A stretch of 52,100 bases of DNA from a candidate division GN15 bacterium (lineage in GTDB: Bacteria > Zixibacteria > MSB-5A5 > GN15 > FEB-12). Numbering within the stretch: position 1 is the stretch's first letter; each line of letters starts with the position of its first letter. Shown here in pieces: positions 1,496-52,093 of the stretch. The notes beneath the pieces are model-generated. The model made no database searches, was not told the DNA's origin, and worked only from the letters and a program-made list of their open reading frames with translations. The stretch is taken from contig WJMS01000066.1 of assembly GCA_014727815.1 (NCBI GenBank), positions 1 to 52,100 on the forward strand, given 5' to 3'. The translations under genes were made by a program, and so were the position numbers.

Positions 1496-1640
1496 CACGT
1501 ACTCCACTGTGCATGTTGCCCCAGCCGCATGGACGGCTGCTTGTTGATTTTCTGTTGTCACGGGAAGTTCTAGCCCCCGTTGTCTCTAGCAACATTGCGT
1601 TGGGCCTTCGGTTCCACACCGGGTCACGCCATCGAGCCAT

Positions 1641-1676
1641 ACAAAAAGAAACGCCCGGCGATGCTTCGCCGGGCGT
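1641..1676 (-). terminator. rho-independent terminator downstream of the redoxin lipoprotein gene
   Basis: Perfect 11-bp stem (1651-1661 pairs with 1666-1676) with a 4-nt loop. On the minus strand it is followed by TTCTTTTTGT. It lies 22 nt after the stop at 1698. Confidence 0.65.
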
Positions 1677-1697
1677 CGAACAAACGTGTCTTTGCGC

Positions 1698-2375: not shown

Positions 2376-2430
2376 CGTGTTCTCCGTGTGATGAGTGTTG
2401 CGATAATGTCTTGTCTATCGGTGTGGATGG

Positions 2431-20330: not shown

Positions 20331-21800
20331 ATGAAACCATCACCACCCGGACCGACCGCAGCAGCCCCGCCCCGCCGACTCCGCGCCGTCTCCCGAGAAC
20401 TGCCGGCCGATCTCGAAACGCCGGTCTCGGCTTTCCTGAAGCTGAAACCGCACGGCGCCATGCTGCTGCTCGAATCAGTCGAGCGGGGCGTCCAGCTCGG
20501 CCGCTATTCCTTCATCGGGATCGCCCCCAGGACGAAGATCATCATCGATGAGTCCAACCTGATGGTGATCGGTCCCGACGGCCGCACTACCGTACCACAT
20601 GAACGCGAGGACGCTGCTGCCAATCCCCTGACTCACCTCAAAACCCTGCTCGGTTCGTACGAGATCGATTTCGAGGGTGACCATCCCCCTCTCCTCGGCG
20701 GCACGGTCGGCTACATCAGCTACGACATGGTCCGGCAGTTTGAACGGTTACCCGACCGGTCACGCGATGTACTCGGGCTGCCCCTGGCCATGCTCTACCT
20801 GATCGACACCCTGCTCGTCTTCGACCATGTCCAGCATCGCCTCCGCCTGATCGCGTTGACCGATGACGCCGACACTACCCGGACAGAGAAGCAGCTTCAA
20901 ACCCTCACGACAGCGCTGCGCACCCCACTTGAATACAACGGCACCGGCTCGGTGAACGATCAGTCCGGCGAGCTGACCTCAAACGTCCGCAAGGAAGACT
21001 TCTGCACGACCGTCGAGCAGGTCAAGGAACACATTGCCGCCGGCGATGTGTACCAGCTGGTCGTTTCGCAGCGCCTGACCGGCCGCACCGAGGCCGACCC
21101 GTTCACCATATACCGCGCCCTGCGCATGCTCAACCCGTCGCCCTATTTGTTCTACCTCGATTTCGACGAAACCAAACTGATCGGCTCCTCCCCCGAGGCC
21201 CTGGTCAGCCTCGCCGGTCGCCAGGCTACCGTTCGTCCGATCGCCGGAACCCGCCCCCGCGGCGATAGCCTCGAAGATGACCGTCGGCTCGCCGAAGAGC
21301 TGCTCGCCGATGACAAGGAACGGGCCGAACATGTCATGCTGGTCGACCTCGGCCGCAACGATCTCGGCCGCTGCTGCGCCACCGGTTCGGTCAAAGTCAG
21401 CGAGTTCATGGCCATCGAGCGCTTCTCCCATGTCATGCACATGACGTCAACGGTCCACGGCCGGTTGCGCGATGATGTCGATCAGTTCGAACTGTTTCGG
21501 GCCGCCTTCCCCGCCGGGACGGTCAGCGGCGCCCCGAAAATCCGCGCCATGCAACTGATCGAGCAGTTCGAGCCGCACCGCCGCGGTCCCTACGCCGGCG
21601 CCGTCGGCTATTTCTCCCTCTCGGGCGACATGGACTGGTGCATTGCCATCCGGACCATCGTGATGAAAGGCGCAACCTTCCACCTGCAGGCCGGCGCCGG
21701 CATCGTCGCCGACTCGGTCCCGGAACGAGAATACGAAGAAACCCTGCACAAACTGGCCGCCCTGCGCCGGGCGATTGCCGCCGCCGAGGAGGGCTTCTGA
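20331..21800 (+). CDS. trpE: anthranilate synthase component I
   Basis: The signature HVMLVDLGRNDLGR and the C-terminal chorismate-binding region are present. GAGGA RBS. Confidence 0.95.
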   Translation: MKPSPPGPTAAAPPRRLRAVSRELPADLETPVSAFLKLKPHGAMLLLESVERGVQLGRYSFIGIAPRTKIIIDESNLMVIGPDGRTTVPHEREDAAANPLTHLKTLLGSYEIDFEGDHPPLLGGTVGYISYDMVRQFERLPDRSRDVLGLPLAMLYLIDTLLVFDHVQHRLRLIALTDDADTTRTEKQLQTLTTALRTPLEYNGTGSVNDQSGELTSNVRKEDFCTTVEQVKEHIAAGDVYQLVVSQRLTGRTEADPFTIYRALRMLNPSPYLFYLDFDETKLIGSSPEALVSLAGRQATVRPIAGTRPRGDSLEDDRRLAEELLADDKERAEHVMLVDLGRNDLGRCCATGSVKVSEFMAIERFSHVMHMTSTVHGRLRDDVDQFELFRAAFPAGTVSGAPKIRAMQLIEQFEPHRRGPYAGAVGYFSLSGDMDWCIAIRTIVMKGATFHLQAGAGIVADSVPEREYEETLHKLAALRRAIAAAEEGF

Positions 21801-22366
21801 TGGTACTCATGATTGACAACTATGACTCGTTCACCTACAACCTCGTCCAGTACGTAGGTGAACTCGGCGCCGATGTCCGCGTCGTCCGCAACGACGAGGC
21901 TACGGTCGATGGACTGGCCGCGATGAATCCAGCACACATCATCATCTCCCCCGGTCCGGGCGCACCCGATGGCGCCGGCATTTCCGTTGACATCATTAAA
22001 CAGCTCGCGGACACGACACCTATTCTCGGCGTCTGCCTCGGTCACCAATGCCTCGCCCACGCATTCAATGGTAAGGTGGTCCGGGCCGATCGGCTGATGC
22101 ACGGCAAGGTCTCCCCTGTCTACCATCACGGCGGCGGCCTCTTCCAGGGCCTCAACAGTCCCTTTACAGCCACTCGTTACCACTCACTGATCGTCGAGGA
22201 GAACTCCCTGCCCGCCTGCTTTGACGTCACCGCCTATACCTCGGAAGGCGAGATCATGGCCATCACTCTTAAGGACCGACCCGTGTATGGCGTGCAGTTT
22301 CACCCCGAGTCGATCCTCACCGATCACGGCAAACTCATGCTCAAGAACTTCCTGGCGAGGAGTTAG
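21800..22366 (+). CDS. trpG: anthranilate synthase component II (glutamine amidotransferase)
   Basis: MVLMIDNYDSFTYNLVQY and the GVCLGHQ catalytic Cys motif. The ATG overlaps the trpE stop by one nucleotide (TGATG). The track ORF begins earlier in the same frame. Confidence 0.95.
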   Translation: MVLMIDNYDSFTYNLVQYVGELGADVRVVRNDEATVDGLAAMNPAHIIISPGPGAPDGAGISVDIIKQLADTTPILGVCLGHQCLAHAFNGKVVRADRLMHGKVSPVYHHGGGLFQGLNSPFTATRYHSLIVEENSLPACFDVTAYTSEGEIMAITLKDRPVYGVQFHPESILTDHGKLMLKNFLARS

Positions 22367-22369
22367 ACC

Positions 22370-23395
22370 ATGCTGACCAAAATCCTGACACGCCTCATGC
22401 AAGGCGAGAACCTGAGCGCCGAGACCACCGAACAGATCGTCGAGCGCATCATGAGCGAAGAGATCTCGCCGGTGCTGATCGCTTCCTTTCTGACGGCGCT
22501 TCGCGCCAAAGGCGAAACCACCGCCGAACTGGTCGGTGCGGCGCGAGCGATGCGTAACCGTGCCATCCGCATCCCCCATCAGCACCCGCTGTTGATCGAC
22601 ACCTGCGGCACGGGTGGCGATGGCTCCGGCACGTTCAACATCTCCACGACCGCTGCCTTCGTGCTGGCCGCCGCCGGCCTCACCGTCGGCAAGCACGGCA
22701 ACCGCAGTATCTCCAGCCGCTCCGGCAGCGCCGACGTACTCGAGGCGCTCGGCGCTCGAATCGACCTCACCCCGGCCCAGGTCGCAACGTGTATCGAACG
22801 CGTGGGTATCGGCTTCATGTTCGCCCCGCACCTTCACCCGGCCATGAAGGCGGTCGGCCCGGTCCGCAAGGAACTCGGCTTCCGCACGATCTTCAATATG
22901 CTCGGCCCCCTGACCAACCCGGCCGGCGCCACCCACCAGGTGATTGGCGTCTTTGCGGCTGACTGTGTCGCGGTGATGGCTCGCGCTGCCGCCGAATTGG
23001 GCGCCCACAATGTCTTCGTCGTGCACAACGAGTGCGGCCTCGATGAACTCGCCACCTGCGGTGTCAGCTGCGTCGTGCAGGTCACCAATGGTACCGTGCG
23101 GACCTTCGAGGTCATCCCCGAGGAACATCGTCTGGCCCGATGTGACATCACCGATCTCGCCGGCGGCGACCCGGTGACAAACGCCGAGATCACCCGGAGA
23201 ATCTTCGATGGCGAACCCGGCCCGGCCGCCAATACCGTTATCCTCAACGCCGCCCTCGGACTTGTCTGCGCGGAAGCAGCCAATTCTCTGGACGACGGTA
23301 TCGCGCTGGCCCGCGAGACGATTGCCGGCGGCCGCGCCCGACAGAAACTGAGCGAGTTCATCGCCTTCACCAACGAGGCCAGCCGTGCTGCCTGA
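22370..23395 (+). CDS. trpD: anthranilate phosphoribosyltransferase
   Basis: Carries DTCGTGGDG and KHGNRS motifs. Confidence 0.95.
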   Translation: MLTKILTRLMQGENLSAETTEQIVERIMSEEISPVLIASFLTALRAKGETTAELVGAARAMRNRAIRIPHQHPLLIDTCGTGGDGSGTFNISTTAAFVLAAAGLTVGKHGNRSISSRSGSADVLEALGARIDLTPAQVATCIERVGIGFMFAPHLHPAMKAVGPVRKELGFRTIFNMLGPLTNPAGATHQVIGVFAADCVAVMARAAAELGAHNVFVVHNECGLDELATCGVSCVVQVTNGTVRTFEVIPEEHRLARCDITDLAGGDPVTNAEITRRIFDGEPGPAANTVILNAALGLVCAEAANSLDDGIALARETIAGGRARQKLSEFIAFTNEASRAA

Positions 23396-24164
23396 GATAC
23401 TCCAGCATAAACGGCGTGAATTGGCCGAGATCGACAGCGCAAAAGAGATCGCCCACTTCAATGAGGTAATCGCCTCGCTGCCGGCCGTCCGCAGCCTGAA
23501 GGCGGCCATTACCAACAACTTCGGTCTGGCACTCATCGCCGAGATTAAACGCCGTTCACCCTCCAGAGGCGCTCTGGCCGACGTCATTGACCCGGCGCAT
23601 CGCGCCCGACTCTACCAACAGGCCGGCGCCGCAGCCGTGTCGGTCCTGACCGACCAGCGTTTCTTCAACGGTTCCATCATCGACCTGCAACTGGCGCGGG
23701 CTGCCGTATCCCTGCCGGTGCTGCGCAAGGACTTCATCCTCACCGAATACCAGGTCTTTGAGTCACGCGCGATCGGCGCCGATGCTATCCTGCTCATCGT
23801 CGCTGCACTCCGCCCCGATGAACTGGCCGATCTGCACCACCTGGCCCACCGGCTCGGCCTCGAGGTGCTGATGGAGGTGCACGACGAAGCCGAATTACAC
23901 ATTGCTCTCGAAGCCGGAGCAACGATACTCGGCGTCAATAATCGCAATCTCGACACCTTCGAGGTCGACCTCGCCACCACCGAACGCCTGCGTCGCCTCA
24001 TCCCCGCCGACCGGGTATGTGTCGCCGAAAGCGGCATTCACACCAGTGAAGACACCCGGCGCCTGCGCGCGATAGACGTTGACGCCATCCTGGTCGGTGA
24101 GAGTCTCATGACCGCCGATGACGTCGCCGCACAAGTACGAACCCTTATGGAGGTGTCGGCATGA
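23385..24164 (+). CDS. trpC: indole-3-glycerol phosphate synthase
   Basis: IAEIKRRSPS and LRKDF motifs. GTG start overlapping the trpD end. Confidence 0.95.
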   Translation: MLPEILQHKRRELAEIDSAKEIAHFNEVIASLPAVRSLKAAITNNFGLALIAEIKRRSPSRGALADVIDPAHRARLYQQAGAAAVSVLTDQRFFNGSIIDLQLARAAVSLPVLRKDFILTEYQVFESRAIGADAILLIVAALRPDELADLHHLAHRLGLEVLMEVHDEAELHIALEAGATILGVNNRNLDTFEVDLATTERLRRLIPADRVCVAESGIHTSEDTRRLRAIDVDAILVGESLMTADDVAAQVRTLMEVSA

Positions 24165-24817
24165 CACGCGTGAAGATCTGTGGGATTACCAACCCCGAGG
24201 ATGCCCTTGCGGCCGTACGTGCCGGCGCCGATGCCCTTGGCTTTGTTTTTGCACCAAGCCCCCGCCGGGTGACACCCGCACAGGCGGCCGCCATCATCGC
24301 TGAACTGCCCCCGTTCATTGCCACCGTCGGCGTGTTTGTCGATACGGGGAGCGCCGGGATCGAAGCAATCATCAGGCAGTGTGGCTTTCACTACATACAG
24401 CTGCATGGTACGAACGACCGGTCAATCGACAGCGTCGTCCCCCTGATTCGCGCTTTCTCTGCTGTTGCCGATGCCGACGATATCATCGCACACCCGGCCC
24501 GCTTTGTCCTGCTCGATGGCTACCACCCCAACCGCGCCGGTGGCACCGGCCGCACCTGCGACTGGTCACTCGCCGCACAGGTGGCCCGGCGCCGACCGCT
24601 CATCCTCGCCGGTGGCCTGCATGCAGACAACGTGGCGTCGGCTCTCGAGACGGTTCGGCCGGCGGCCGTCGATGTCTCCAGCGGTGTCGAGCGTGAACCG
24701 GGACAAAAAGATCACGAGAAGATACAATCTTTCATATACGAGGTACGCAAATGGGATTGCCTGACAAACGAGGCTACTTCGGGCGATTCGGCGGACGGTT
24801 TGTTCCTGAAACGCTGA
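24161..24817 (+). CDS. trpF: phosphoribosylanthranilate isomerase
   Basis: VKICGIT N-terminus and the GLHADNV / VDVSSGVE C-terminal motif. ATGA overlap with trpC. Its 3' end overlaps trpB by 67 nt. Confidence 0.9.
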
Positions 24818-25977
24818 TGGCCGCTTTACTGCAGCTCGAACGCGAATACGCCGAGGCCCGCCACGATCGAGACTTCGGCCGCAACCTTCGCGAACTCCTT
24901 CGCCGGTATGTCGGCCGGGCCACCCCGTTGTACAGAGCCGAACGACTCTCCGAAACCTGGGGCGGTGCGACAATCTACCTCAAACGCGAAGACCTCAACC
25001 ATACCGGCGCACACAAGATCAACAACTGTCTCGGCCAGGCATTGCTTACCAAACGCATGGGCAAGTCACGGGTAATCGCCGAGACCGGCGCCGGGCAGCA
25101 CGGCGTCGCCGTCGCAACCGTTGCAGCCCGATTCGGATTCGACTGCACCATCTACATGGGCGCCGAGGATATGCGGCGGCAGGCCCCCAACGTCCAGCGC
25201 ATGAAACTACTTGGCGCCGAGGTCGTTTCCGTATCCTCCGGTACCGCCACCCTCAAGGATGCCACCAACGAAGCGATGCGCGACTGGGTCGCCAGCGTCG
25301 AATCAACCCACTATATCATCGGCTCGACCGTCGGCCCCCACCCCTTCCCCCGCATCGTGCGCGACTTCCAGTCGGTCATTGGTCGTGAGACGCGCCGCCA
25401 GGTGCGACGCCAGACCGGCCGCTTGCCCGACACGATAGTTGCCTGCGTTGGCGGCGGCTCCAACGCCCTTGGCATGTTCTATCCGTTCCTGCGCGACACT
25501 GAGGTCGCCCTGGTCGGTGTTGAAGCGGCCGGCGACGGTCTTACCACCATGCGCCACGCCGCGACCCTCAGCAAAGGTGCTCCGGGCGTGTTACACGGCA
25601 GCTTCAGCTACCTCTTGCAGGATGACCGCGGCCAGGTCCAGCCGACCCACACTATCTCGGCCGGTCTCGACTATCCCGGGGTCGGCCCCGAACACAGCTA
25701 CCTGCACGAGTCCGCTCGCGTGACGTACACCTCTGTTGACGACGCCGAAGCACTCAACGCCTTCAAGGAACTATGCGCTCTTGAGGGTATCATCCCCGCC
25801 CTGGAGTCCTCGTTCGCCCTGGCCGGAGCGCGGCGTATCGCTCAGCAATCTACGCCCGGGCATACCATCGTCATTAATCTCTCCGGTCGCGGCGACAAGG
25901 ACCTGACCACCGTCCACTCGCTCGATGCCGCCGAACAGGAAAACATCACCTCGATAAACAAGGTCACCCGCCCATGA
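24751..25977 (+). CDS. trpB: tryptophan synthase beta chain
   Basis: [12 protein letters not shown] and HTGAHKINN (PLP lysine) motifs. GAGG RBS. Confidence 0.95.
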
Positions 25978-26813
25978 ACACGATCACATCAGCTTTCGCG
26001 GCCTGCCGCAGCCACAACCGGGCGGCCCTGATTCCGTACCTTATGGCCGGCTACCCGGATGAAACGACTTTCGTTGCACTGGTCGATGCTGTCTTCGACG
26101 CCGGCGCCGACCTGCTCGAAATCGGTATCCCCTTTTCCGATCCCCTCGCCGATGGCCCAACGATCCAGCGCGCCGCACAAACGGCTCTTTCGCACGGCGT
26201 GACAGTCGAACAAACGCTCGATATGCTGGCCCGCATCCGCAACACCGACAGCAAGCCGCTGGTCATCATGAGCTATCTCAATCCGCTCCTCCGGTACGGT
26301 CTCGACCGCTTCGCTGCCGAAGCCGCTCGAATCGGCGTGCGAGGACTGATCGTCCCCGATGTCATCATCGAAGAGTCGGCCACGCTCGAGCGAACGATGC
26401 GGACAGCCGGGATCGACCTCGTCCACCTGATCGCGCCAACCTCGCCCCCCGATCGACGCGCCTCGATCCTGCAGCGTAGCCGGGGGTTTGTCTATCTCGT
26501 CTCGATCGCCGGCGTCACCGGCGCCCGACGTGAACTCCCGGCCAGCCTCACCACTATGATCCGCGCCATCCGCACCGCCAGCCCGGTACCGGTCGCAGTC
26601 GGCTTTGGCATCTCCACTCCCGAGCAGGCGGCGTCGGTCGGACGCGAGGCCGATGGTGTTGTGGTCGGCAGCGCCCTGATCGATTGCATCGATCGGGCCG
26701 GATCGCCATCAGCGTCAATCACCCGGGCCGCCGACTTTATCGCCACCCTGCGCCGCGGCCTCAACAGATCAGAAACTCATCCCGCCCCTGAGCAACTTCG
26801 GAGGACGCCATGA
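25974..26813 (+). CDS. trpA: tryptophan synthase alpha chain
   Basis: [15 protein letters not shown] motif. ATGA overlap with trpB. Confidence 0.95.
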
Positions 26814-27826
26814 CCGTCGTGGTAATGAAAGATAACGCCAGCGTGAAAGAGATCAGCTCGGTGATCAAGCGCATCGAAGAGCTTGGTTTCCGCCCCCATC
26901 TTTCGCAGGGCAACGGTCGCACCGTCATCGGCATGGTCGGCGGCGGGCTGCCGATGAACCAGGAAGACTTCCTGTCTCTGCCGGGTGTGGCCGAAATCGC
27001 CCCGGTCGAAAAACCGTTCAAACTCGGCAGCCGGGAATTCCGGGCAGAACCAACCCGGATCGTTGTCGGCGATGTCACCATCGGCGGCGACACGGTTGTC
27101 ATGATGGCCGGTCCCTGTTCGGTTGAGTCACGCGAACAGACACTGACCATTGCCGAGTCTATCCACCAGGCCGGTGCCCACATCCTTCGCGGTGGCGCCT
27201 TCAAGCCGCGCACGTCGCCCTACAGCTTTCGCGGTCTCGGCAAAGCGGGACTGGAGATCCTCGCCGAAGCCCGCGCGCGCACCGGCATGCCGATTGTCAC
27301 TGAGGTCCTTTCGGCGCACGATGTCGACCTGGTATGTGAGTACGCCGATATCATCCAGATCGGCGCCCGCAACATGCAGAACTTTGCCCTTCTCGACGAG
27401 ATCGGCAAACTGACCAAGCCGATCCTGCTCAAACGCGGGCTGATGTCGACTATCGAAGAGCTGCTGATGTCGGCCGAGTACATCCTGGCCGGCGGCAACC
27501 CGAATGTCATCCTGTGTGAACGGGGCATCCGCAGTTTCGAAAAGTACACACGCAACACCCTCGATATCTCGGCCGTCCCCATCCTCAAGCGGCTCAGTCA
27601 CCTGCCGGTCATTGTCGATCCGTCCCATGCCACCGGCCAGCGCGATCTGGTGGCGCCGGTGTCCCGAGCCGGGGTCGCGGTCGGCGCCGATGGTCTCATG
27701 GTCGAAACGCACAACGACCCCGACAAGGCCCTCTCCGACGGCGCTCAGTCGCTGACTCTGCCGCAGTTCGACGACCTCATGGCCAACCTGAAATCCCTGG
27801 CCGGGGCGGTCGGACGAACAATGTGA
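26810..27826 (+). CDS. aroF: 3-deoxy-7-phosphoheptulonate (DAHP) synthase, type I-beta with N-terminal ferredoxin-like regulatory domain
   Basis: Carries KPRTSPYSFRG, and the core IVDPSHATG resembles KDO8PS/DAH7PS I-beta. A roughly 70-aa N-terminal ACT-like extension (VVVMKDNASVKEISSVIKRIEELGF) is present. ATGA overlap with trpA. Confidence 0.9.
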   Translation: MTVVVMKDNASVKEISSVIKRIEELGFRPHLSQGNGRTVIGMVGGGLPMNQEDFLSLPGVAEIAPVEKPFKLGSREFRAEPTRIVVGDVTIGGDTVVMMAGPCSVESREQTLTIAESIHQAGAHILRGGAFKPRTSPYSFRGLGKAGLEILAEARARTGMPIVTEVLSAHDVDLVCEYADIIQIGARNMQNFALLDEIGKLTKPILLKRGLMSTIEELLMSAEYILAGGNPNVILCERGIRSFEKYTRNTLDISAVPILKRLSHLPVIVDPSHATGQRDLVAPVSRAGVAVGADGLMVETHNDPDKALSDGAQSLTLPQFDDLMANLKSLAGAVGRTM

Positions 27827-27956: not shown

Positions 27957-29009
27957 ATGGGGAAACCGGCAGCTCGCCTGGGCGATTCGACCGCCCACGG
28001 CGGCGTTATAGTCAAAGGTGAACCAACCGTTATGATCGGCGGCATGCCGGCCGCCCGGGTTAGTGACAACCATGTCTGCCCCATGATGAACCCCGGCACC
28101 CCGCCACCGCCCCATGTCGGCGGACCGATCACCGGGCCGGGCGTGCCGACAGTGCTCATCAAAGGCATGCCTGCTGCCGTTGTGGGCGACATGGCCACCT
28201 GCTCCGGCCCCCCGGATACCATCGTCAAGGGCTGCCCGACCGTCTTGATCGGTCCCGGCAGTGGCGGTGGCGGCGGTATGGCCGGCGGCGGTGGCGGCAG
28301 TGGCGCAAGTGCCACGGCCAAGTCGTCCGAGGTTGAAGAGGGCCACATTCTGGATGTCACTTTCGAAGACAAAGGTGGTCTGCCGGTGGGCGGCGCCGTG
28401 TACACCGTCAAGAAGGGTAAAGAGATAGTCGATTCCGGCCCGCTCACCGGACGTATCAAGCGCTCAGGAGTGGAACAGGGCAACTACGACATCGAAATCC
28501 GCGCCATCAGCAAAGCCACCTGGTCAAAAAACGAAGCCGAGGTCGGCGACAAACTCACCCTGAGCGCAAAGACGGCCGGTATCGAGAACGACACCCCTGC
28601 CAGCGTCGTCGTTTACATGCGCGACATCAACTCGGCCGACCGCCAGTTGGCCGGTTTCGACACCAAAGTCAGCGGTGACAAAGTTGAGGTCGACTGGACT
28701 TTCGCTGTCGACGAGAAACTGCTGAAGGTACAACAGGAGAAAGCGCAAAAGGGCGGCTACTCGTCACCAACTTTCTTCTTCACTGTTGAAGCGGCCGGCT
28801 GCCAGGCCCGTTCCGGCATACTCCGATTGAAAGACTGGATAGAAATCGAACTGCGCGATAAAGACGGCAACCCCATGGGCAACAAGAAGTACCGGGTGCA
28901 CCTGCCCAACGGCGAGATTCGCAAAGGAACGCTCGATGGTAACGGCTATGCGAAGATCGACAAGGTTCCGCCTGGCCGCGTACACGTTGCATTCGATATC
29001 AAGGAATAA
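27957..29009 (+). CDS. PAAR-domain spike-tip protein with Gly-rich linker and about 230-aa C-terminal beta-sandwich extension
   Basis: Three PAAR-type motifs (KPAARLGD, MPAARVSD, MPAAVVGD) lie in residues 1-100. A GSGGGGGMAGGGGGSGASA linker follows, then CarboxypepD_reg-like and Ig-like modules. Residues about 184-350 are paralogous to the protein at 34247. Confidence 0.85.
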   Translation: MGKPAARLGDSTAHGGVIVKGEPTVMIGGMPAARVSDNHVCPMMNPGTPPPPHVGGPITGPGVPTVLIKGMPAAVVGDMATCSGPPDTIVKGCPTVLIGPGSGGGGGMAGGGGGSGASATAKSSEVEEGHILDVTFEDKGGLPVGGAVYTVKKGKEIVDSGPLTGRIKRSGVEQGNYDIEIRAISKATWSKNEAEVGDKLTLSAKTAGIENDTPASVVVYMRDINSADRQLAGFDTKVSGDKVEVDWTFAVDEKLLKVQQEKAQKGGYSSPTFFFTVEAAGCQARSGILRLKDWIEIELRDKDGNPMGNKKYRVHLPNGEIRKGTLDGNGYAKIDKVPPGRVHVAFDIKE

Positions 29010-29033: not shown

Positions 29034-32000
29034 ATGGCATCCCAGAACAACAGCAGCCTCACCGCCGGACTCTCCGCACTGTCGACCGGTTGCGCCTCCG
29101 CCACCGGCGGGCGTGCGCAATTCCAGCACCGACTGGTACCGGTCCAGATACTCGAGATGGAAGACGTCCTCTTCCACCTCAACAGCGCCGTCATGATGCC
29201 CGACCGCCCCGCCGGCAGGTCTTCCGAAGACGGCGCACAGCCCAGTGACGAACAATCGGACATGACCGGCCTCAACGTCCTCGCGCTCGTCTTCCGACAA
29301 TTCGAGTTCGACCCGACCCTCCGGATGATCGTCACCGGCCACACCGATACTTCCGGCGGCACGAGAATGAACTTCGAGTTATCCCAGCAGCGCGCCAAGG
29401 GGGTCCTGTATCTTCTCAACGGTGACATCCAGCAGTGGCAGCGCTTGTGTTTCCAGCGGCACAAGGTCGAAGATTACCAGCAGATCATCGAGTACTTCCA
29501 CAATCTTGCCGCACCGTGGAAACGCTCCAACTGGAACTGTGACCCGCAGGGACTCGACAACAAGTTCGGCAACAAGACGCGCAATGCGATCAACGGCTTC
29601 GCGCAGGGATACAATCGCGACTACGCCGATGCCTACTTCACGCCGCGCCTGCCCGACAATCTCGGTGACATTATCGCCAACCGGCCCAATCACACCTGGC
29701 CGGAATCCGACTGGCGCGCGATTTATCACCTCTACTCCCAGGTCATCTGCGACACCCTGCAGATCCTGCCGCTCGAACTCGACAACCAGCGCGAAAACGC
29801 GCTGCGCTATGTTGATGATGACAAACCGATTGTCGGCTGCGGCGAGTCGTTCCCGCTCGACGAGCGCGGGCGCGACAACTACCGCTCCCAGCAGAACCGG
29901 CGGGTCGAGATTCTCTTTTTCGCCGACCGCGATGCTCCACCCATGACCTGTCCGGCCGTGACCGATCGCACCCACACCGAGGCCGAGTGCCCGCTCTGGA
30001 GCCGCTACCATTTCGAACCGACCTACATCAGCCCCGGCGACCTGCACGCCGTCGCGTACCATCTCAAGTTTGAGTATTACAACAAGGTCCGCGACGAAGT
30101 CATGGCGATCCCGCCCGGCTTGAACATCGAAGCGCTCCGCCCCGATGACACCGCCATCAACAGCCGCGTCGTGCAGGGCAGCGACCTGTACACCGTCGTG
30201 GTGCAGTTCGCTACACAGGATGAAGCCGACAATCTCTCCGACAAAGTCCGCTTCCGCTTCGCGGCCCCCGACAGCTATATCTTCACCGCCAACAGTTCCG
30301 ACACCCCGAGGATTGTGACCAGGACGGCCGAAGAAATCGATGCCCTGTCCGATCTCGACCGCTGGCGCCACTACGACCTCCCGACCGAATGGGAGTCAAC
30401 CAACTGGTTCGCAACTAAGGACGACGACGTCGAGCCAATCTCCGAACTGCTCAAGCAGTCGACCAGCGCCTCCTCGCCGATCGTGTTCGATCTTGACAGC
30501 ATCGTGCTGGTGGACGGTACCGGCAGCCAGGCAATCCGGGACCGTTCCGCCTTCGTCAACGGCGCCAACCCGAACGGCGTGCCGAAACCGCTGTCGGAGC
30601 ATTCACGGGTACGCATCCTCTTTGTCGATCCTGAAGACCACCAGATGAAGATCTTCCCGGAAGTCGATCCGACCTCCGGTGACATCCCCGCCGACCACGA
30701 GGAGACACTGATACGATTCGAGCAGGACGAGAACAATGTCACCCGCAATTTCATTGTCGACACCCCGGAAAACGCCCGCGCGGTTGTCTTCTGCGGCGAC
30801 TTCTACGACGTCACCCGCAAACGCACCGTCCGCAACGGCTCATTCAATCCCGCCGCCGGACACGTTCTCGGCGCCCGTGCGGCCGTACTCAATGATGATG
30901 ATGTCCACGGCAGACAGACGATCACCTACCGTGACGGTATCGATACCGTCCACAACAGCGGCATCGGCGACTTCGACCTGCACTATCTCCACGACAGCAG
31001 CTGCGACGGCAGCCGGTTCTACTCCCACCTGATAGTCTACTGGTCGTGCTTCATCATCAAAGACCCCGACCCCACCGTGGGCGGCACCGGCGGCGAGCGT
31101 CCGGCCACCGATGCCGAGGTTGAGGAGTTCTTCAGTGTCGGCATGGTCAACTCGATGTTTCACTGGAACAAGAAGCTGTACGAGTTCGAGCGTACCGACG
31201 GCAACCGTGATCGCATTGTCAGGCCATTCTTCATGTTCGAAGGCAACGAAACGCTCGACTATACCCCGTCGTCGGCCTTCGATTTCGAGGACGACAATTT
31301 CAAAGCTATGTGGACCCGGGCCGATTTCAACGCCGCCCTGCGCAATACGCACGGCGGTCGGCCCAAGTCAGTCGCCGTCATCGTCGAAGAAGACAAAGGC
31401 AGCTGGGTGGTCTCGGCCCGGGCGGCCGACCGGCCCTTCAGCCTGCTGAGTTTACGGATCAAGACCCGCGAGGACGACCCCGGTCGCTTCTCCGGCTTCC
31501 CGTTCGACGAATTCGAAGACCCCGAGGGCTACGGCTGCCTGGTCATGGCGCATGAACTAGGTCACGCCACCGGGCAGGTCGATGATTACATGGACAAGGT
31601 GCCGAATGTGAGAACTAACGGTCGCCTGCCCAATTTCGGTCAGTTTGGCGTCACCTCAGGTGGCAATGACATCCGCGACAACAACTCCAACTTCCCCCAG
31701 CGCGTCCAGGGCTCCGAATCGTGGGATATCGACCACGACAAGCTCACCATGATGGACAAAAACGGCCCGATCCGCATGCGTCATGTCTGGCGCTTCGTAC
31801 ACTGGCTCAACGAGCAGAGCAAATCCGGCGGCAGCCTGCATCGCTACCTCGAGGGCGACCAGTTCCGCATGTACTACCCGCGCGCCGACATGCACTATCA
31901 TCGCCAGACCGCCGACCCGGTCGATCCCTGGCGATGGTCCAATGGCGGCCAGGTCACAATCAGCGGCAACAAGACCGCCAACCTCTATCTCTTCCAGGAG

Positions 32001-32534
32001 CTGGATGAAACCCGGCGGCTCGATCGCTCCGTCACCGACAACCCGACCGACTTCAGGGCGATCCTCAATGTCCGCTTCCTGCTCTCGATCGCGTTCGTCG
32101 ACAACGGCGCCCACACCTGGTCCGGCGCCCAGAAACGAGCCTGGGCCCGCATGATCTACAACTGGTTGACCAAATCGACCGGCCCCTACAAAGTCACCGG
32201 ACGGTTCCAGCTCACCGGTGGCGGCGGCGCGCTTGACCCGACTATCATCCGGGTGATCCCGGGCTTCGAGATCTACAGCCCCGGTTCACCGCCCGGTCAC
32301 GGTGCGTTCAACTATCGGGTCGAGGTCAAACAGTCGAGCAATGACCCGTTCAATCTGAACAACCAACGCCGCCTGCGGCTGGGCGATAATCACTCGGCGA
32401 GAAAAATAATCAACTACTTCTACGATAAACCGGAAGACGCTGCCGCCCTGTCGGCCGCCGACTTCAATTTCGTCGCCACCTGGTTCAATCAACCGTCAGT
32501 CAGCAGCGGCGGCTTCCGGGTGGAGGAGGTGTAG
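29034..32534 (+). CDS. large candidate T6SS effector: OmpA-like peptidoglycan-binding domain (with insertion) plus C-terminal HExxHxxGxxD zinc-metallopeptidase-like region
   Basis: OmpA/MotB-type motifs are present: IVTGHTDTSGGTRMNFELSQQRAKGVLYLL ... NRRVEILFF. VMAHELGHATGQVDDY begins at residue 837. There is no signal peptide or TM. The gene lies immediately downstream of PAAR and upstream of a lipoprotein. Confidence 0.6.
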   Translation: MASQNNSSLTAGLSALSTGCASATGGRAQFQHRLVPVQILEMEDVLFHLNSAVMMPDRPAGRSSEDGAQPSDEQSDMTGLNVLALVFRQFEFDPTLRMIVTGHTDTSGGTRMNFELSQQRAKGVLYLLNGDIQQWQRLCFQRHKVEDYQQIIEYFHNLAAPWKRSNWNCDPQGLDNKFGNKTRNAINGFAQGYNRDYADAYFTPRLPDNLGDIIANRPNHTWPESDWRAIYHLYSQVICDTLQILPLELDNQRENALRYVDDDKPIVGCGESFPLDERGRDNYRSQQNRRVEILFFADRDAPPMTCPAVTDRTHTEAECPLWSRYHFEPTYISPGDLHAVAYHLKFEYYNKVRDEVMAIPPGLNIEALRPDDTAINSRVVQGSDLYTVVVQFATQDEADNLSDKVRFRFAAPDSYIFTANSSDTPRIVTRTAEEIDALSDLDRWRHYDLPTEWESTNWFATKDDDVEPISELLKQSTSASSPIVFDLDSIVLVDGTGSQAIRDRSAFVNGANPNGVPKPLSEHSRVRILFVDPEDHQMKIFPEVDPTSGDIPADHEETLIRFEQDENNVTRNFIVDTPENARAVVFCGDFYDVTRKRTVRNGSFNPAAGHVLGARAAVLNDDDVHGRQTITYRDGIDTVHNSGIGDFDLHYLHDSSCDGSRFYSHLIVYWSCFIIKDPDPTVGGTGGERPATDAEVEEFFSVGMVNSMFHWNKKLYEFERTDGNRDRIVRPFFMFEGNETLDYTPSSAFDFEDDNFKAMWTRADFNAALRNTHGGRPKSVAVIVEEDKGSWVVSARAADRPFSLLSLRIKTREDDPGRFSGFPFDEFEDPEGYGCLVMAHELGHATGQVDDYMDKVPNVRTNGRLPNFGQFGVTSGGNDIRDNNSNFPQRVQGSESWDIDHDKLTMMDKNGPIRMRHVWRFVHWLNEQSKSGGSLHRYLEGDQFRMYYPRADMHYHRQTADPVDPWRWSNGGQVTISGNKTANLYLFQELDETRRLDRSVTDNPTDFRAILNVRFLLSIAFVDNGAHTWSGAQKRAWARMIYNWLTKSTGPYKVTGRFQLTGGGGALDPTIIRVIPGFEIYSPGSPPGHGAFNYRVEVKQSSNDPFNLNNQRRLRLGDNHSARKIINYFYDKPEDAAALSAADFNFVATWFNQPSVSSGGFRVEEV
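31551..31583 (+). other. HELGHATGQVD motif (HExxHxxGxxD, metzincin/snapalysin-style zinc site) within the effector candidate
   Basis: Read directly from the sequence: codons 840-850 of the 29034 ORF. A possible Met-turn (LTMMD) lies about 60 residues downstream. Confidence 0.55.
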
Positions 32535-32565
32535 GCTGAACGGTGTGGCGAATGGATATCGCAGT

Positions 32566-33780
32566 ATGCGTCAAGTGGTCGCGACCGGATTGCTCCTGGT
32601 CGCAGTCGCGGTCACCGGCTGCCGGGCCGATTCGGACCGGACTCAATCCCGACCGGAAGGAAACTCCATGGCTTCCTATGTAAGGCTCTTTGCGGATTAT
32701 CAGCAACGCTCGGTCCAATCGATCACCACCAACGCCGCCGGCAACGAGAGTTGGTTCCTGCCACTGGCCGACGCGGGCTTCGGCAATCCCCCCACGGTCC
32801 TGTTGGCCACACCCGACGGCCTCGTCGCCCAGTCGGTCGATCGCCTCGCGGGCGTCTCCTACGATGGTGATCTGCGCTGGCAACAACCGCACGGCGCCGG
32901 TCTCGATGCCGTCTACAGCGATGGCGCCACGTACTACCGGACCACCGAAGGCGACCTGTACGCGATCAACGCCGAGGGCAAAATCACCTTGTCCGATTTC
33001 TTCGTCCCCACCAGCCATGACCGGGGTTTCATCTACCTCGCCCTGCCCCGTCCCGACCGGCATATCCTCTTGCACACCTTCGCTCGCTCCGAGGAACCGA
33101 TGCCCGGCGATCCGCCCCAGCCCGACAGCTACGCCCTCCTGCTGATGGGCGACGAGCGTTATGACGATTGGGATTGGATGCATGAATTCGAAGGCGAGTG
33201 CCTGCCCGGTCTCATGACGACCGACCTCGGACGTGTCGTTATCCTCGATGGTAACGGCGGCGCGACGAGCTTCGATGCCACCACCGGCGAACAGACCGGC
33301 CGTTTCACCGTAACCGACCGTGAGTTCCTCCGCGCCAGCCTCGACAACGACAACAACATCATCGCCGCAATGCGCACGACCGACAACACCGGCCTGCTGG
33401 CTTCATATACCCTCGAAGGCAAACGCAACTGGGAACTGCTCCTCGACACCATCCCGGCCGGCGCCTTCACCCAGCCGCCGGCAATCGGACCCGACAACAG
33501 CGTTCTATTCATCGTCGGCAACGAACTGCTCCGTGTCGTCAACGGCGAGGTGCAGCACCGCTCCCCGGTTCTGAGTGCCAAACGGCAATATATAACGGTG
33601 CTGGAAGACAGCTCCGCCCTGCTGGTTGCTGCCAATGCCCTGATCCACCTCGATCCGGAAGGCGAACAGAAATTCGCGGTAACGCTCGACCCTGCCGAGA
33701 CAGTCACCGCCCCGGCCGTAGTCGACGGCAAAGGTCGGGTATGCATTGCCACCAGCCGCGGAATCCGCAGCTATGAGTGA
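32566..33780 (+). CDS. lipoprotein with PQQ/BamB-like beta-propeller repeats (candidate periplasmic immunity protein)
   Basis: MRQVVATGLLLVAVAVTGC lipobox. Recurrent DG.L.W / G...W-type blade motifs (DGDLRWQQ, GKRNWELLL). The start is taken at the ATG at 32566; the track start 32545 is a GTG. Confidence 0.6.
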   Translation: MRQVVATGLLLVAVAVTGCRADSDRTQSRPEGNSMASYVRLFADYQQRSVQSITTNAAGNESWFLPLADAGFGNPPTVLLATPDGLVAQSVDRLAGVSYDGDLRWQQPHGAGLDAVYSDGATYYRTTEGDLYAINAEGKITLSDFFVPTSHDRGFIYLALPRPDRHILLHTFARSEEPMPGDPPQPDSYALLLMGDERYDDWDWMHEFEGECLPGLMTTDLGRVVILDGNGGATSFDATTGEQTGRFTVTDREFLRASLDNDNNIIAAMRTTDNTGLLASYTLEGKRNWELLLDTIPAGAFTQPPAIGPDNSVLFIVGNELLRVVNGEVQHRSPVLSAKRQYITVLEDSSALLVAANALIHLDPEGEQKFAVTLDPAETVTAPAVVDGKGRVCIATSRGIRSYE

Positions 33781-46710: not shown

Positions 46711-47637
46711 GTGGCACTTGAGATAAAGACATACATCGATAACCTCTTCGCCTACCTCGACCGCTTCGAAAACTCATACGAGCAGTTCGAGACCGAGGCG
46801 TTCCTGCAGACCTACAACGGCATCATCGCCGTCTTCCAGGCTCTTCGGCAGCAGCGCAACGAGGCGATCGAGGTCGACCAGTACTTCCTCTCGAAGATTC
46901 GTCAGAATCCGCTGACCAGCTCCGATTTACGGCAGCTGACCGTCCAGGTGTTGATCACCTTCTTTGAATCGGAAGCCGACACCGACGGCCAGTCAGCGCA
47001 GGCCTACGGCCACGTCCGCGGCCTTCGCCCGGTCAAGCAGGACATCCCCTTTTTCGAGAATCACCTGGTTCCCTTGTTGTTCGCCGATGGCGGCCTGAAC
47101 AACAACTTCCGCCTGCGCAAATTCCTGGTCGATGAAATCGCTCGCTACATGAACAAGTTCGGTCGGAAACTGCAGCCGAACCTCTCCCCCGAGGATTTCC
47201 AGGCGCTCAGCGATCCGCTCAAGATTCTCGAGCTGGCCCGTCGTCGCCGTGAACTCGGCGAGCAACTCATCGCTGATCGTGACAGCCTCGAATTTCATCT
47301 GCAGCGCATCGAGTTCTTCAACAAGCTCGGCGCCAGAAACCGGCTGCTCGACCAGTTCCTGCGCGAATGGGACTACATCAAAACGACTGATTTCTGGGCC
47401 AAAGTCAAAACGGCTGTCGGTGAACTGGGTGGCAAGATCCGCGGCGCCTTCTCCAGCTTCGGCTACCTGCGCCTGATCCTCACCCAGCGCAACCCGGCCT
47501 ACCTGCTGTACGGCGTCGTGATCGTTTTGTTCATCTTCCTGGCGATCTACGTACCACTGGCCTGGCAGGATCACACCAATGACAAGCTGCACGAATTCCA
47601 GGAGCGAGCCAACACCCTGCAATCGAGCGGCAAATAG
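46711..47637 (+). CDS. uncharacterised tail-anchored inner-membrane protein (helical cytoplasmic domain plus single C-terminal TM)
   Basis: About 260 predicted helical residues are followed by AYLLYGVVIVLFIFLAIYVPLAW (47497-47565) and a 23-aa tail. GTG start 18 nt after tssK. I recognise no family motif. Confidence 0.6.
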   Translation: MALEIKTYIDNLFAYLDRFENSYEQFETEAFLQTYNGIIAVFQALRQQRNEAIEVDQYFLSKIRQNPLTSSDLRQLTVQVLITFFESEADTDGQSAQAYGHVRGLRPVKQDIPFFENHLVPLLFADGGLNNNFRLRKFLVDEIARYMNKFGRKLQPNLSPEDFQALSDPLKILELARRRRELGEQLIADRDSLEFHLQRIEFFNKLGARNRLLDQFLREWDYIKTTDFWAKVKTAVGELGGKIRGAFSSFGYLRLILTQRNPAYLLYGVVIVLFIFLAIYVPLAWQDHTNDKLHEFQERANTLQSSGK

Positions 47638-50518: not shown

Positions 50519-52093
50519 CTATCTGCCGAAATACACCGTCACCTGGTACAGCGTATCCAGCAGCGGAATGTACTCGTCGATCGACACCCGATTGAGCGGG
50601 TTGCCCGTCAAATCGACAACATTATACTGTCCCAGTGACCCTTGCTCGGCCATCTGCACCAGTGGCGCGATGTCCGTGATAGCATTGTTGTTGAGGTAAA
50701 GCTGGGTTGGATTGGTCAACTGCGTCAGCGGTGTCAGATCCGAAACAGCATTGCTTCGAATGTACAACCGACCGAGATTGGGCAGGCCGGCCACGAAATC
50801 CAGATTGCTGATCGAATTCTGATCCAGCCGGAGCGTACGAAGCACCTCGGAGCCGCCCAGTGTGGCCATGTCGGCATCATCCAGTCGACAGGACTCGAGA
50901 TTGATATACCGAAGTCGCTCGATTGTCGAAAGCGGCGCCAGGCTGCTGATATCACCATTGAACGGCAGGCTCAACTCCCTCAGCAGCCGCAGCCCAGACA
51001 GCGGTGACAGGTCGCTGATCGAGTTGTAGCCCAGGCCGATCAACTCGGCATTGGCAAACGTCTCCATACCCGCTATGGACTCGATCCCGTACTCATCTGC
51101 ATTGAAGAAGCGAATGTCCACCACCTGCGAGAGCAGGATCGGCGGATTGGCATCAAGTGCAGAGGCAACGGCTTCGGCCAGCTGCGGGTCCGGGAACATC
51201 ACAACACTGTCCGGCGCCGCGATTAATTGCACCCGGGATTCCTCCAGGTACACTTCCGCCGTCGGAATCGTATCTTCATCGACGTCCACCAGGGACAACT
51301 CGAGAAAACGCAGATCGACCATCGGATTGAAGTCGCCGACCACCGTCCGCGTGTCAAAGACGATCGACGCTATCGTACCGTTGCCGTCGGCGTTTACCAC
51401 TCTGCCGCCGAGTGTATCGACCGCCACCACGATGAACTCCGTGTCATCGTTGAACAGGCCGGCTGTGAACTCGACTCTGTTCGAGTCAAGTGTCGGAGAT
51501 AATCGTCCTTCCCGCGGTTCGAGATACTGTATCTCATCGAAGTAGCCGAAATCAACCGATACCGCGATACCTGCCAGATTGGGAATATTATGCACGGTCA
51601 AATCGAGTGTCAGCGGTTCACCCGCGCGCACCTCGCTGTACTTCGGTGACAACCGAACCATCGGCACCGTCGGCTGCAGATTGATCTCAATCTCCACCAC
51701 CACATCCGGCGCCACTGCCTGCTCGGTCACCCCCTGGTAGATGACCTGGGTGATCGTATCAGCCGTGGTCTGGGTGCTGTCGTAATTGATCGCAAGGATC
51801 TCTTCGGCCGTCAGAATGAACGTCAACCGACTGCCGGCCGGTACCTCCACCTCACCATAGAAATTCTGATCCTCAAATGGGAATACATACGATGAGTCAA
51901 ACAGTGGCCCGACCACCCGCAGCCGAAAGATGTCGATCTGCTGCAGGAACGCGTCGGTCGCCAGCGTCGGATTCAGGGCGATATTGCCGCCGCCCGGAAG
52001 CGTACTGTTGGTCGGCCGCTTCGAACACCCCCACACCACCAGCAGCGCAGCCAGTAGTGCGACAAGTACGGTGAGAAGTATACGTCGTTTCAT
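50519..52093 (-). CDS. lipoprotein with cohesin-like beta-sandwich domain and C-terminal internalin-type leucine-rich repeats
   Basis: MKRRILLTVLVALLAALLVVWGC lipobox. A middle segment (LTVHNIPNLAGIAVSVDF) is cohesin-like. The C-terminal roughly 22-residue LRR units read L..L..L.L..N.I.D(L/I).PL. Confidence 0.75.
   Translation of the reverse strand: MKRRILLTVLVALLAALLVVWGCSKRPTNSTLPGGGNIALNPTLATDAFLQQIDIFRLRVVGPLFDSSYVFPFEDQNFYGEVEVPAGSRLTFILTAEEILAINYDSTQTTADTITQVIYQGVTEQAVAPDVVVEIEINLQPTVPMVRLSPKYSEVRAGEPLTLDLTVHNIPNLAGIAVSVDFGYFDEIQYLEPREGRLSPTLDSNRVEFTAGLFNDDTEFIVVAVDTLGGRVVNADGNGTIASIVFDTRTVVGDFNPMVDLRFLELSLVDVDEDTIPTAEVYLEESRVQLIAAPDSVVMFPDPQLAEAVASALDANPPILLSQVVDIRFFNADEYGIESIAGMETFANAELIGLGYNSISDLSPLSGLRLLRELSLPFNGDISSLAPLSTIERLRYINLESCRLDDADMATLGGSEVLRTLRLDQNSISNLDFVAGLPNLGRLYIRSNAVSDLTPLTQLTNPTQLYLNNNAITDIAPLVQMAEQGSLGQYNVVDLTGNPLNRVSIDEYIPLLDTLYQVTVYFGR

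Follow-up and report, generated by a model that had tools for sequence, protein, structure and literature searches.

A type VI secretion system (T6SS) metallopeptidase which carries an HExxH motif and is toxic only in the periplasm has been described in Pseudomonas aeruginosa and Acinetobacter baylyi (VgrG2b C-ter/Tpe1-Tpi1; PMC6899460). The immunity gene of the VgrG2b/Tpe type lies immediately downstream and its product is exposed to the periplasm, often as a lipoprotein (PMC6899460). The Glu of the HExxH motif of VgrG2b C-ter is needed for toxicity, and the domain, which has no peptidoglycan (PG) hydrolase activity, may release lipoproteins (PMC6899460). Cargo recruitment is a known role of the transthyretin-like (TTR) domains of spike proteins (PMC7376260), and in a 2012 survey OmpA domains were put forward, under the name 'Tox-OmpA', as toxin domains in PVC-type systems (PMC3482391). 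The present analysis concerns a 52,100-nt stretch of contig WJMS01000066.1 from a candidate division GN15 bacterium (the whole stretch is referred to as the window) and, in particular, the protein of the open reading frame (ORF) 29034..32534, designated X. The gene order of the locus is PAAR, X, lipoprotein (PROP), DcrB (EAG141) and P292, followed by the machine genes ClpV, TssB, TssC, Hcp, VgrG, TssE, TssF, TssG, TssK and a TssM-like gene. X is probably an effector carried as cargo by the T6SS whose genes lie just downstream, and it would dock on peptidoglycan and cut its target in a rival cell. Outside Proteobacteria and gut Bacteroidales there is, to our knowledge, hardly any work on T6SS effectors, and a search for literature on T6SS in Zixibacteria or Ignavibacteria found nothing relevant.

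Domain organisation of X

The ORF of X opens with an ATG located 24 nt past the stop of the PAAR gene, comprises 1166 codons, and no longer upstream reading frame is possible. Neither a signal peptide nor a transmembrane (TM) segment had been noticed in X by a first-pass annotation of this DNA, and this was borne out by the Kyte-Doolittle 19-residue mean, which peaks at 1.14 in X (no TM- or signal-like stretch), as compared with 1.68-2.74 in the true signal and TM segments of the products of neighbouring genes. The N-termini of 120 homologues of X are likewise hydrophilic.

The search for relatives of X in a collection of 5.8 billion proteins yielded 214 sequences, nearly all of them full length (1050-1240 amino acids, aa) and either unnamed or labelled 'hypothetical' or 'OmpA family', from Zixibacteria, Chitinivibrionales, Aminicenantes and similar metagenome-assembled genomes (MAGs). 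A genome scan added 80 more loci with X, from Ignavibacteria, Fibrobacterota, Krumholzibacteriota, Gemmatimonadota, Caldithrix and a few Desulfobacterales. Conservation was read from an alignment of 92 X homologues, while the Pfam scan of single family members covered 43 sequences. The OmpA-like halves are by far the best-conserved part of the family: among distant members they share 59-61% identity, as against ~30% in the middle and HExxH regions and 21% in the C-terminus.

The AlphaFold2 model of full-length X is a confident one (mean predicted local distance difference test score, pLDDT, 89.1; predicted template-modelling score, pTM, 0.83). The order of elements in its N-terminal part (strand 35-43, helix 80-92, strand 96-104, helix 110-129, an insert, and strands 266-269 and 289-297) is that of the OmpA-like beta-alpha-beta-alpha-beta-beta fold, as judged from the model. 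In agreement with this, Pfam OmpA (PF00691) matches residues 82-125 with an E-value of 1.3e-5 (25.9 bits, just below the 27.2 cut-off, first half only) and is matched by all 43 family members scanned, at best with 2.9e-9; many homologues carry a precomputed PF00691 call, a series of OmpA-type lipoprotein models of NCBIfam match X, and the family profile matches Pal crystal structures at 2.7e-5. The PDB search with the single X protein gave marginal OmpA matches only, the family profile performing better for OmpA and giving insignificant matches for peptidases. The Foldseek comparison of the model led to OmpA-like 3td5 of A. baumannii (probability 0.98) and OprF 5u1h (probability 0.92), with TM-scores (target) of 0.49-0.56. 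The weakness of the E-values (0.04-0.1) stems from the length of the query, 1166 aa, and the 123-residue target 5u1h is aligned over 263 columns since the insert splits the OmpA-like domain. Residues D105 (in GHTD(105)TSG) and R120 (in LSQQR(120)A) are invariant in the 92 sequences, and we take them to be the Asp/Arg pair that binds the stem-peptide diaminopimelate (DAP carboxylate) in the OmpA-like family; E41, E43 and D44 are invariant residues specific to the X family. The OmpA motifs which the first-pass annotation had placed at about residues 40-300 are thus well founded.

The presence of an OmpA-like domain in a T6SS locus could also mean that X is a structural peptidoglycan anchor of the envelope complex, like TagL or an extended TssL, and NCBIfam indeed gives a weak match to the OmpA domain of long-form TssL (E 0.0021). 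The first-pass annotation had argued against such an anchor from the lack of an export signal, and the idea now seems scarcely credible: signal peptides and TM segments are absent from X and its homologues, the locus has TM proteins of its own in a TssL/TssM/TssJ-like layout (P308, P736 and P179), and X is dispensable in sister loci (see below). The TssL match, which is sub-threshold, is the sole T6SS-related one in the NCBIfam scan of X, where no T6SS(iii) membrane-complex family was found. The identification of X with the membrane complex of Bacteroidota (TssR etc.) was considered and rejected, TssR being a lipoprotein with a vWA domain (PMC10781749).

An insertion with a PG_binding-like segment had likewise been proposed; the split of the OmpA-like domain held and the PG_binding_1 likeness holds by way of relatives, but the length is ~130 residues (131-262) and not ~170. 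The insert lies between alpha2 and beta3 and is wholly helical in the model. Pfam does not call PG_binding_1 (PF01471) in X, even with the excised insert at E <= 10, and only one of the 43 single members matches it, weakly (0.021). Residues 39-325 of X, meanwhile, align with the N-terminus of the relative L082 (L-numbers denote individual loci) with 36% identity and an E-value of 1e-61, and over the stretch equivalent to the insert Pfam calls PG_binding_1 in L082 at 9.4e-15. Three further relatives show PG_binding_1 in the homologous stretch at 5.7e-13 to 2e-5, a value of 2e-6 among them. By transitive homology, the insert can be described as PG_binding_1-like.

The same N-terminal module, again signal-less and with the ILEMEDVLFH strand (about residue 40), is also found at the head of proteins that continue differently towards the C-terminus: in L073 it is joined to a calcineurin-like phosphoesterase (Pfam Metallophos), and in L076, L079, L081 and L082 to other regions without a family match. 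Since the relatives join the module to varied C-terminal regions, and a clear enzyme domain is among these at least in L073, a targeting device is suggested. The second slot of L071 encodes a separate protein that combines a Zn-dependent phospholipase C with OmpA. A broader and rather doubtful proposal is that the signal-less OmpA/PG_binding_1 module, starting with the invariant ILEMEDVLFH strand, constitutes an unrecognised T6SS cargo-marker and targeting domain of the FCB group and neighbouring phyla. Such a domain would recruit its protein to the PAAR/P292/Eag set, dock on prey peptidoglycan and carry interchangeable C-terminal heads, each with its own immunity protein, the beta-propeller lipoprotein class included. 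The heads may then comprise the metzincin-like peptidase of X, the calcineurin-like phosphoesterase region and others without a family match.

The motif HELGHATGQVD, noticed in the first pass at 31551-31583, corresponds to residues 840-850, and the HExxH is found at the same place in all full-length homologues. H840, E841, H844 and D850 are invariant in the 92 sequences, as are Y852 and R914, and G843, G847 and M907 (the second Met of LTMMD) are conserved in at least 90% of them. Given that the mean column identity across the alignment is only 27%, the conservation of the motif is far beyond chance. M907 is situated 57 residues past D850, ahead of a long helix; it is invariant in the 43-sequence set, and N910, R914 and W919 are conserved just downstream. 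The model of this region contains strand 662-676, the long helix 693-712, strands 717-738, 779-784 and 803-808, the HExxH helix 837-845, M907 and helix 915-929, an order of elements that appears to match that of the metzincins (beta-I, alpha-A, beta-II to beta-V, alpha-B, Met-turn, alpha-C).

Comparison with named peptidase families gave faint matches. The NCBIfam M6 domain was found on residues 828-890 with an E-value of 0.012 (sub-threshold), the family profile reached snapalysin (1c7k/4hx3) at 0.12 and serralysins at ~1, and among the 43 single members Reprolysin_5 was matched by five (best 0.0032), M6 by two, Reprolysin_3 by two and M64 by one (1.8e-4). The only non-OmpA Foldseek target with a probability of at least 0.3, besides one filamin Ig domain (0.30), was profragilysin-3 (E 0.1, probability 0.47 and 0.30, TM-score (target) 0.21). 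With residues 640-960 of X as the query, HMMER was run exhaustively on 1.84 billion representatives; it led to only 132 proteins, nearly all matched at the same relative position, and found no bridge from this region to a named peptidase family. From these searches the X family appears compact and stable in its architecture, the HExxH domain not being a freely shuffled toxin cassette. Of the earlier metzincin reading, the motif and the conserved M907 of LTMMD stand, but the fold is weakly supported (Foldseek E 0.1, HMM E 0.003-0.12; HMM, hidden Markov model), and residues 661-935 are hence described, with weak support, as 'zincin, metzincin-like' and not filed as a metzincin.

X might instead be a non-catalytic or non-proteolytic toxin, the OmpA/PG_binding_1 module of which binds stems or precursors and blocks wall synthesis in the manner of 'Tox-OmpA', with the HExxH region serving as a metal-binding structural or binding domain. 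OmpA domains have been proposed as toxin domains binding PG precursors (PMC3482391), the OmpA module is the best-conserved part of X and is reused with other C-terminal regions, and the peptidase fold has no significant match. However, those regions include at least one clear enzyme domain (Metallophos in L073), and in a family that is otherwise ~30% identical, H840, E841, H844 and D850 do not vary at all and M907 hardly does. The invariant set includes the general-base Glu, a residue with no role in metal binding alone, and a non-catalytic toxin is accordingly rated as decidedly unlikely.

No Pfam or NCBIfam family covers residues 300-1166, the Pfam search with four excised sub-regions at E <= 10 gave noise only, and the Foldseek search of the full model against viral structures had no match. 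Residues 327-660 are apparently tandem beta-sandwich domains in the model, for which Foldseek gives non-specific Ig-like matches and Pfam none. A conserved Cys/His set bridges the end of the OmpA-like domain and the next domain: C269 (29838-29840) and C319 (29988-29990) are invariant, C306 (29949-29951) and H314 (29973-29975) are conserved in at least 90% of the sequences, and C169 belongs here as well. These residues could form a structural metal (zinc) site or disulfides that arise only in the oxidising periplasm.

Synteny and exchange of the X-PROP slot

ORFs were called in 83 loci (three context loci and the 80 from the genome scan) and searched with the window proteins. PAAR-X-PROP, in most cases with EAG141 and P292 next in line, is the order in ~70 of the 80 genome loci, representing Zixibacteria, Ignavibacteria, Fibrobacterota, Chitinivibrionales, Aminicenantes and others. 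The module occurs in two T6SS arrangements, either ahead of split ClpV-TssB-TssC, as in the window, or behind TssE-F-G-ClpV-VgrG, and also on contigs without a machine gene within 10 kb. In L012 and L049, X-PROP is found without PAAR nearby. Four MAGs carry two modules each, the X copies being ~30% identical and the PROP copies mutually undetectable by BLASTP.

As was noted in the first pass, a lipoprotein gene lies immediately downstream of X. Its product, PROP, starts with MRQVVATGLLLVAVAVTGC, a lipoprotein-type signal that reads MRQVVATGLLLVAVAVTG ahead of the C. In most loci the gene after X is PROP, and loci that lack X also lack PROP. Of the 59 homologues of PROP that are full length, 53 carry a strongly hydrophobic segment at the N-terminus, with a Cys right behind it in at least 35, and the PROP of L070 had a lipobox in the first scan, which brings those with a signal-like N-terminus to 54 of 59. 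At about codon 42 of the window PROP (...GNSM-ASYVRLFADYQ), a Met stands directly ahead of the conserved start of the mature propeller, and it recurs in many homologues. PROP is proposed, from gene order and signal sequences, to be the cognate immunity protein of X.

Loci that are anchored on X cannot tell whether X is dispensable, and for this reason TssB served as the anchor: loci with a TssB 73-85% identical to that of the window were fetched and annotated alike, six of them having enough upstream sequence; the TssB identity in the sister loci compared is 73-79%. Two (L093 and L094) have the order X-PROP-EAG-P292-ClpV, and in another (L090) the sequence starts within the module, PROP lying at the edge of the contig. 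The other three (L089, L100 and L101) are devoid of X and PROP, with EAG141, P292, the split ClpV and the downstream machine genes in the same order; PAAR is seen in L089 and L100, and its position in L101 lies beyond the stretch covered. The slot ahead of EAG141 in L089 (1527-4214) is occupied by a 633-aa protein (1527-3428) and a 258-aa HEAT-repeat protein, and that in L101 (5-1584) by a pair of the same type, the first gene being cut by the stretch edge. In the 633-aa replacement, too, an HExxH motif is present (TLAHEIGHFIGLANNFD; TLAHE[IL]GH in the L089/L101 type), together with a PG_binding_1-like motif, LMGYYRGPIDG...ALLNFQ, read by eye. The HEAT-repeat protein of L101 has the lipobox LVVAVHIAC, that of L089 has no signal from its called start, and the slot of L100 (1419-3478) harbours an unrelated pair of 187 and 499 aa without a family match. 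All three pairs are candidates for further effector-immunity pairs. The slot is polymorphic, the loading set and the machine are constant, and X and PROP are gained and lost together.

X and PROP also diverge faster than the machine genes, with the exception of VgrG. The identities to the window proteins in L028 are 32% for X and 23% for PROP, as compared with 76% for TssC, 69-77% for ClpV, 71% for TssB, 53% for PAAR and 56% for P292 (no value for VgrG). In L004 they are 67% for X, 52% for PROP, 90% for TssC, 83-87% for ClpV, 92% for TssB, 65% for PAAR and 71% for P292, and VgrG (46%) is as divergent as PROP. Because they are co-inherited, sit in a polymorphic slot and evolve faster than the core machine genes, X and PROP bear the signature of an effector-immunity pair, and sequence comparison identifies X as a putative exchangeable cargo effector accompanied by its immunity protein, not as a structural anchor. 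A T6SS-delivered, periplasm-acting effector, in keeping with the lipoprotein gene downstream, had been suggested in the first pass, and the genomic data agree with it in PAAR adjacency, recurrence, joint loss or replacement, fast evolution, the proportion of PROP homologues with a signal and the invariance of the PG-binding and zinc-site residues.

X could alternatively be a building block or accessory of the spike complex, which assembles or stabilises the VgrG-PAAR tip or eases its passage through peptidoglycan. It stands beside PAAR in most loci, in several phyla and in two locus architectures, the constancy of EAG141 and P292 as its partners hints at an organised complex at the tip, its N-terminal module is highly conserved, and some effectors are needed for T6SS assembly (PMC11925235, a review). 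Nevertheless, the three TssB-anchored loci without X and PROP keep EAG, P292 and the machine genes seen (PAAR in the two where it is in view), X and PROP occur without a nearby PAAR in L012 and L049, X evolves much faster than ClpV, TssB and TssC, and its invariant catalytic-type residues argue for an enzyme. A spike part is therefore considered rather unlikely, and X is better regarded as cargo.

Proposed function and gene content of the locus

As a cargo effector, X would be made in the cytoplasm, where it lacks an export signal, and loaded onto the spike via PAAR, its proposed carrier, the PAAR tail, P292 and the DcrB/Eag-like protein representing a constant loading set according to synteny. 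It would then be fired into the periplasm of a neighbouring diderm cell, where, as the conserved residues and the fold suggest, the OmpA-like domain and the PG_binding_1-like insert may dock on peptidoglycan through the D105/R120 pocket. Docking would hold the HExxHxxGxxD zinc-peptidase-like domain at the wall and allow it to cleave a wall-associated substrate. HExxH enzymes normally cut proteins and VgrG2b C-ter has no PG hydrolase activity, hence a PG-associated or otherwise periplasmic protein or lipoprotein is favoured, by analogy, over peptide stems. PROP, exported to the periplasm, would shield the producer and its kin, as judged from its signal peptides and its strict co-inheritance with X.

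Several observations weigh against this scheme. The Foldseek search with the full model gave no match at E <= 1e-3 that would speak for a peptidase fold, and all matches of X to zincin-family HMMs are sub-threshold. The excised residues 680-940, modelled on their own (pLDDT 82.9), found no meaningful match among PDB structures by Foldseek (best E 2), probably since the cut removed strand 662-676 and broke the sheet, with the loss of strand 727-738. Five of the 59 PROP homologues, four from Ignavibacteria (L014, L027, L041 and L064) and that of L045, have no signal and are a poor fit to a purely periplasmic immunity protein. In these five, the ORF opens right after the X stop, at a Met also kept at an internal position of the exported versions, which suggests either that the 'immunity' protein has cytoplasmic forms or that two start sites are in use. 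Moreover, beta-propellers were noted as absent among immunity proteins in the 2012 polymorphic-toxin survey (PMC3482391). It is also unusual for a pure passenger that one effector family is so widely kept beside PAAR and has the OmpA module as its best-conserved part, which leaves room for an additional role of X in assembly. Lastly, the secretion and toxicity of X, its binding of zinc and the immunity conferred by PROP are all predicted properties.

The positions of X, its regions and the neighbouring gene products are given in Table 1.

Table 1. Features of X and of the surrounding T6SS locus, in positions of the window (res, residues of the protein concerned)
Feature	Position	Strand	Basis
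X, candidate cargo effector, 1166 aa	29034..32534 incl. stop	+	ORF, homologues, AlphaFold2 model
OmpA-like first half of X, res 35-130 (beta1, alpha1, beta2, alpha2); D105/R120 invariant	29136..29423	+	Pfam/NCBIfam/PDB, Foldseek, conserved columns
Helical insertion of X, res 131-262, PG_binding_1-like, KVEDYQQI...DNKFGNKTRNAINGFAQ	29424..29819	+	model helices 132-255; homology to L082 module
OmpA-like second half of X, res 263-300, VGCGESFP...NRRVEILFF, beta3-beta4	29820..29933	+	strands 266-269, 289-297; R289, R290, V291 invariant
Cys/His-rich linker of X, res 301-326	29934..30011	+	C306, H314, C319 (with C269) conserved
Beta-rich middle region of X, res 327-660	30012..31013	+	secondary structure, pLDDT mostly >90
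Zincin/metzincin-like putative catalytic domain of X, res 661-935	31014..31838	+	model topology; weak family matches
HELGHATGQVD (H840-E841-x-x-H844-x-x-G847-x-x-D850), proposed zinc site	31551..31583	+	invariant columns
T905-M906-M907, candidate Met-turn (S/T-x-M)	31746..31754	+	M907 conservation
C-terminal mixed alpha/beta region of X, res 936-1166, most variable part	31839..32531	+	21% median identity among distant members; no Pfam match
PROP, beta-propeller (PQQ_2/BamB-like) lipoprotein	32545..33780, probable ATG 32566	+	Pfam PQQ_2 7.2e-10; lipobox AVTG/C
PAAR spike-tip protein, 350 aa: PAAR domain, Gly-rich linker, prealbumin/transthyretin-like C-terminal extension	27957..29009	+	PAAR_motif 2.1e-24; weak CarboxypepD_reg 299-346
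EAG141, DcrB/DUF1795 (Eag-type) cytoplasmic chaperone-like protein, 141 aa	33801..34226	+	Pfam DcrB 5.5e-8, 33.4 bits, above cut-off; no signal
P292, PAAR-less paralogue of PAAR C-terminal extension, 292 aa	34247..35125	+	similarity to PAAR tail; conserved in module
ClpV first ORF: N-domain and AAA D1, 487 aa	35354-36817	+	split ClpV
ClpV second ORF: AAA D2 and ClpB_D2-small, 367 aa	36814-37917	+	4-nt overlap with first ORF
P308, 308 aa, C-terminal TM (260-288)	46711-47637	+	no family assignment
P736, 736 aa, N-terminal P-loop (DO-GTPase2 1.6e-6, IcmF-related_N 0.004), TM 335-364	47665-49875	+	no family assignment
P179, 179 aa, N-terminal hydrophobic segment	49897-50436	+	no family assignment

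The last 170 residues of P292 share 38% identity (E 1e-38) with residues 184-346 of PAAR, and P292 is a possible adaptor. In some relatives P292 is followed by a second large enzyme gene, as in L101:2917-6099 (LysM, BACON and Metallophos, then a pentapeptide-repeat protein), and L001:16473-19634 encodes at this place a 1053-aa protein with a faint LysM match. There are hints that P292 may serve a second cargo slot.

The ClpV gene is split in the window and also in L001, L004-L008, L028, L031, L074 and L087-L101, and since so many related loci share it, the split is no frameshift from sequencing but a conserved trait of this T6SS lineage. Where the alternative gene order occurs, ClpV is one protein of ~870 aa. 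The genes for P308, P736 and P179 follow tssK in a layout reminiscent of TssL/TssM/TssJ, and those for the 308-aa and 736-aa proteins are kept in L089-L101. With these three encoded in the locus, the machine has its own candidate envelope proteins, which may represent a reduced membrane complex of this T6SS lineage.

Directly upstream of the T6SS locus lies a trp cluster (trpE, probable trpG, trpD, trpC, trpF, trpB and trpA) together with a DAHP synthase with a ferredoxin-like N-domain (20331-27826, plus strand). As the module has other upstream neighbours in the relatives examined, the boundary of the locus is set at ~27900. Just past the T6SS genes, a convergent gene (50519-52093, minus strand) encodes a 524-aa leucine-rich-repeat (internalin-like) protein matched by NCBIfam internalin models at 1.8e-20.

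Comparison with described systems

The class to which X would belong, that of PAAR-linked periplasmic cargo toxins with a lipoprotein immunity protein, is already established and no concept is overturned. Within this class, X represents a so far uncharacterised family of putative effectors from uncultured bacteria, phylogenetically wide and marked by an unusual targeting module. For uncultured Zixibacteria, Ignavibacteria, Fibrobacterota and their relatives, the X family offers a defined and widely kept candidate effector-immunity pair of their T6SSs, and the constant PAAR-tail/P292/DcrB set around an exchangeable slot provides a practical handle to mine more effectors in these phyla. Should the proposed function hold true, the wall-docking device of OmpA-like and PG_binding_1 type would serve the delivery or targeting of secreted toxins, a second and unrelated lineage of periplasm-acting T6SS metallopeptidases would stand beside Tpe/VgrG2b, and a beta-propeller lipoprotein would act as an immunity protein.

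Like VgrG2b/Tpe, X is a T6SS-linked HExxH protein with a downstream lipoprotein partner, a likeness that is functional only: no VgrG2b entry was found among the PDB sequence matches or the 50 best Foldseek matches of X. Tpe, either a small protein or a small VgrG-fused domain, lacks a PG-binding module, whereas X is a separate cargo of 1166 aa encoded by PAAR, and its immunity candidate is a beta-propeller of ~400 aa instead of a small protein. With the metzincins that have Asp as the third ligand (snapalysin, MEROPS M7), X shares the HExxHxxGxxD motif, the Met of S/T-x-M ~57 residues further on and, as judged from the model, the order of elements. It has, however, no significant similarity to snapalysin, fragilysin or serralysin, its domain is larger, with insertions at residues 740-780 and 855-900, and Y852 and R914 are invariant extras of X.

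The N-terminal module, for which 'Tox-OmpA' is the nearest published idea, has the fold, the Asp/Arg pair and the NRRVEI strand in common with Pal, the OmpA C-terminal domain, MotB and the TagL/TssL extensions. In contrast to these, X has an insert of ~130 residues, its module heads T6SS-linked enzymes, and it is devoid of an export signal, so that it cannot reach the wall of the producer by Sec. The coupling of a PG-binding module to a hydrolytic-type domain is also seen in VgrG3 of Vibrio cholerae, a wall-targeting T6SS effector in which a muramidase with a PG-binding domain is fused to the spike, and in matrixins, Sec-secreted enzymes of eukaryotic type that combine PG_binding_1 with a metzincin domain. 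A pairing of PG_binding_1 with HExxH is suggested in L089:1527-3428, by the motif read by eye, but the nested OmpA/PG_binding_1 arrangement of X is absent from both VgrG3 and matrixins.

Finally, as in the systems of Eag (DUF1795/DcrB) and PAAR, a cytoplasmic DcrB-family protein is encoded together with PAAR and the toxin candidate X. The Eag chaperones described so far shield TM helices at the N-terminus of prePAAR effectors, whereas in the window a TM segment is absent from both PAAR and X. Since the DcrB gene stays when X is replaced, the client of EAG141 is more likely to be PAAR/P292, or a generic feature.

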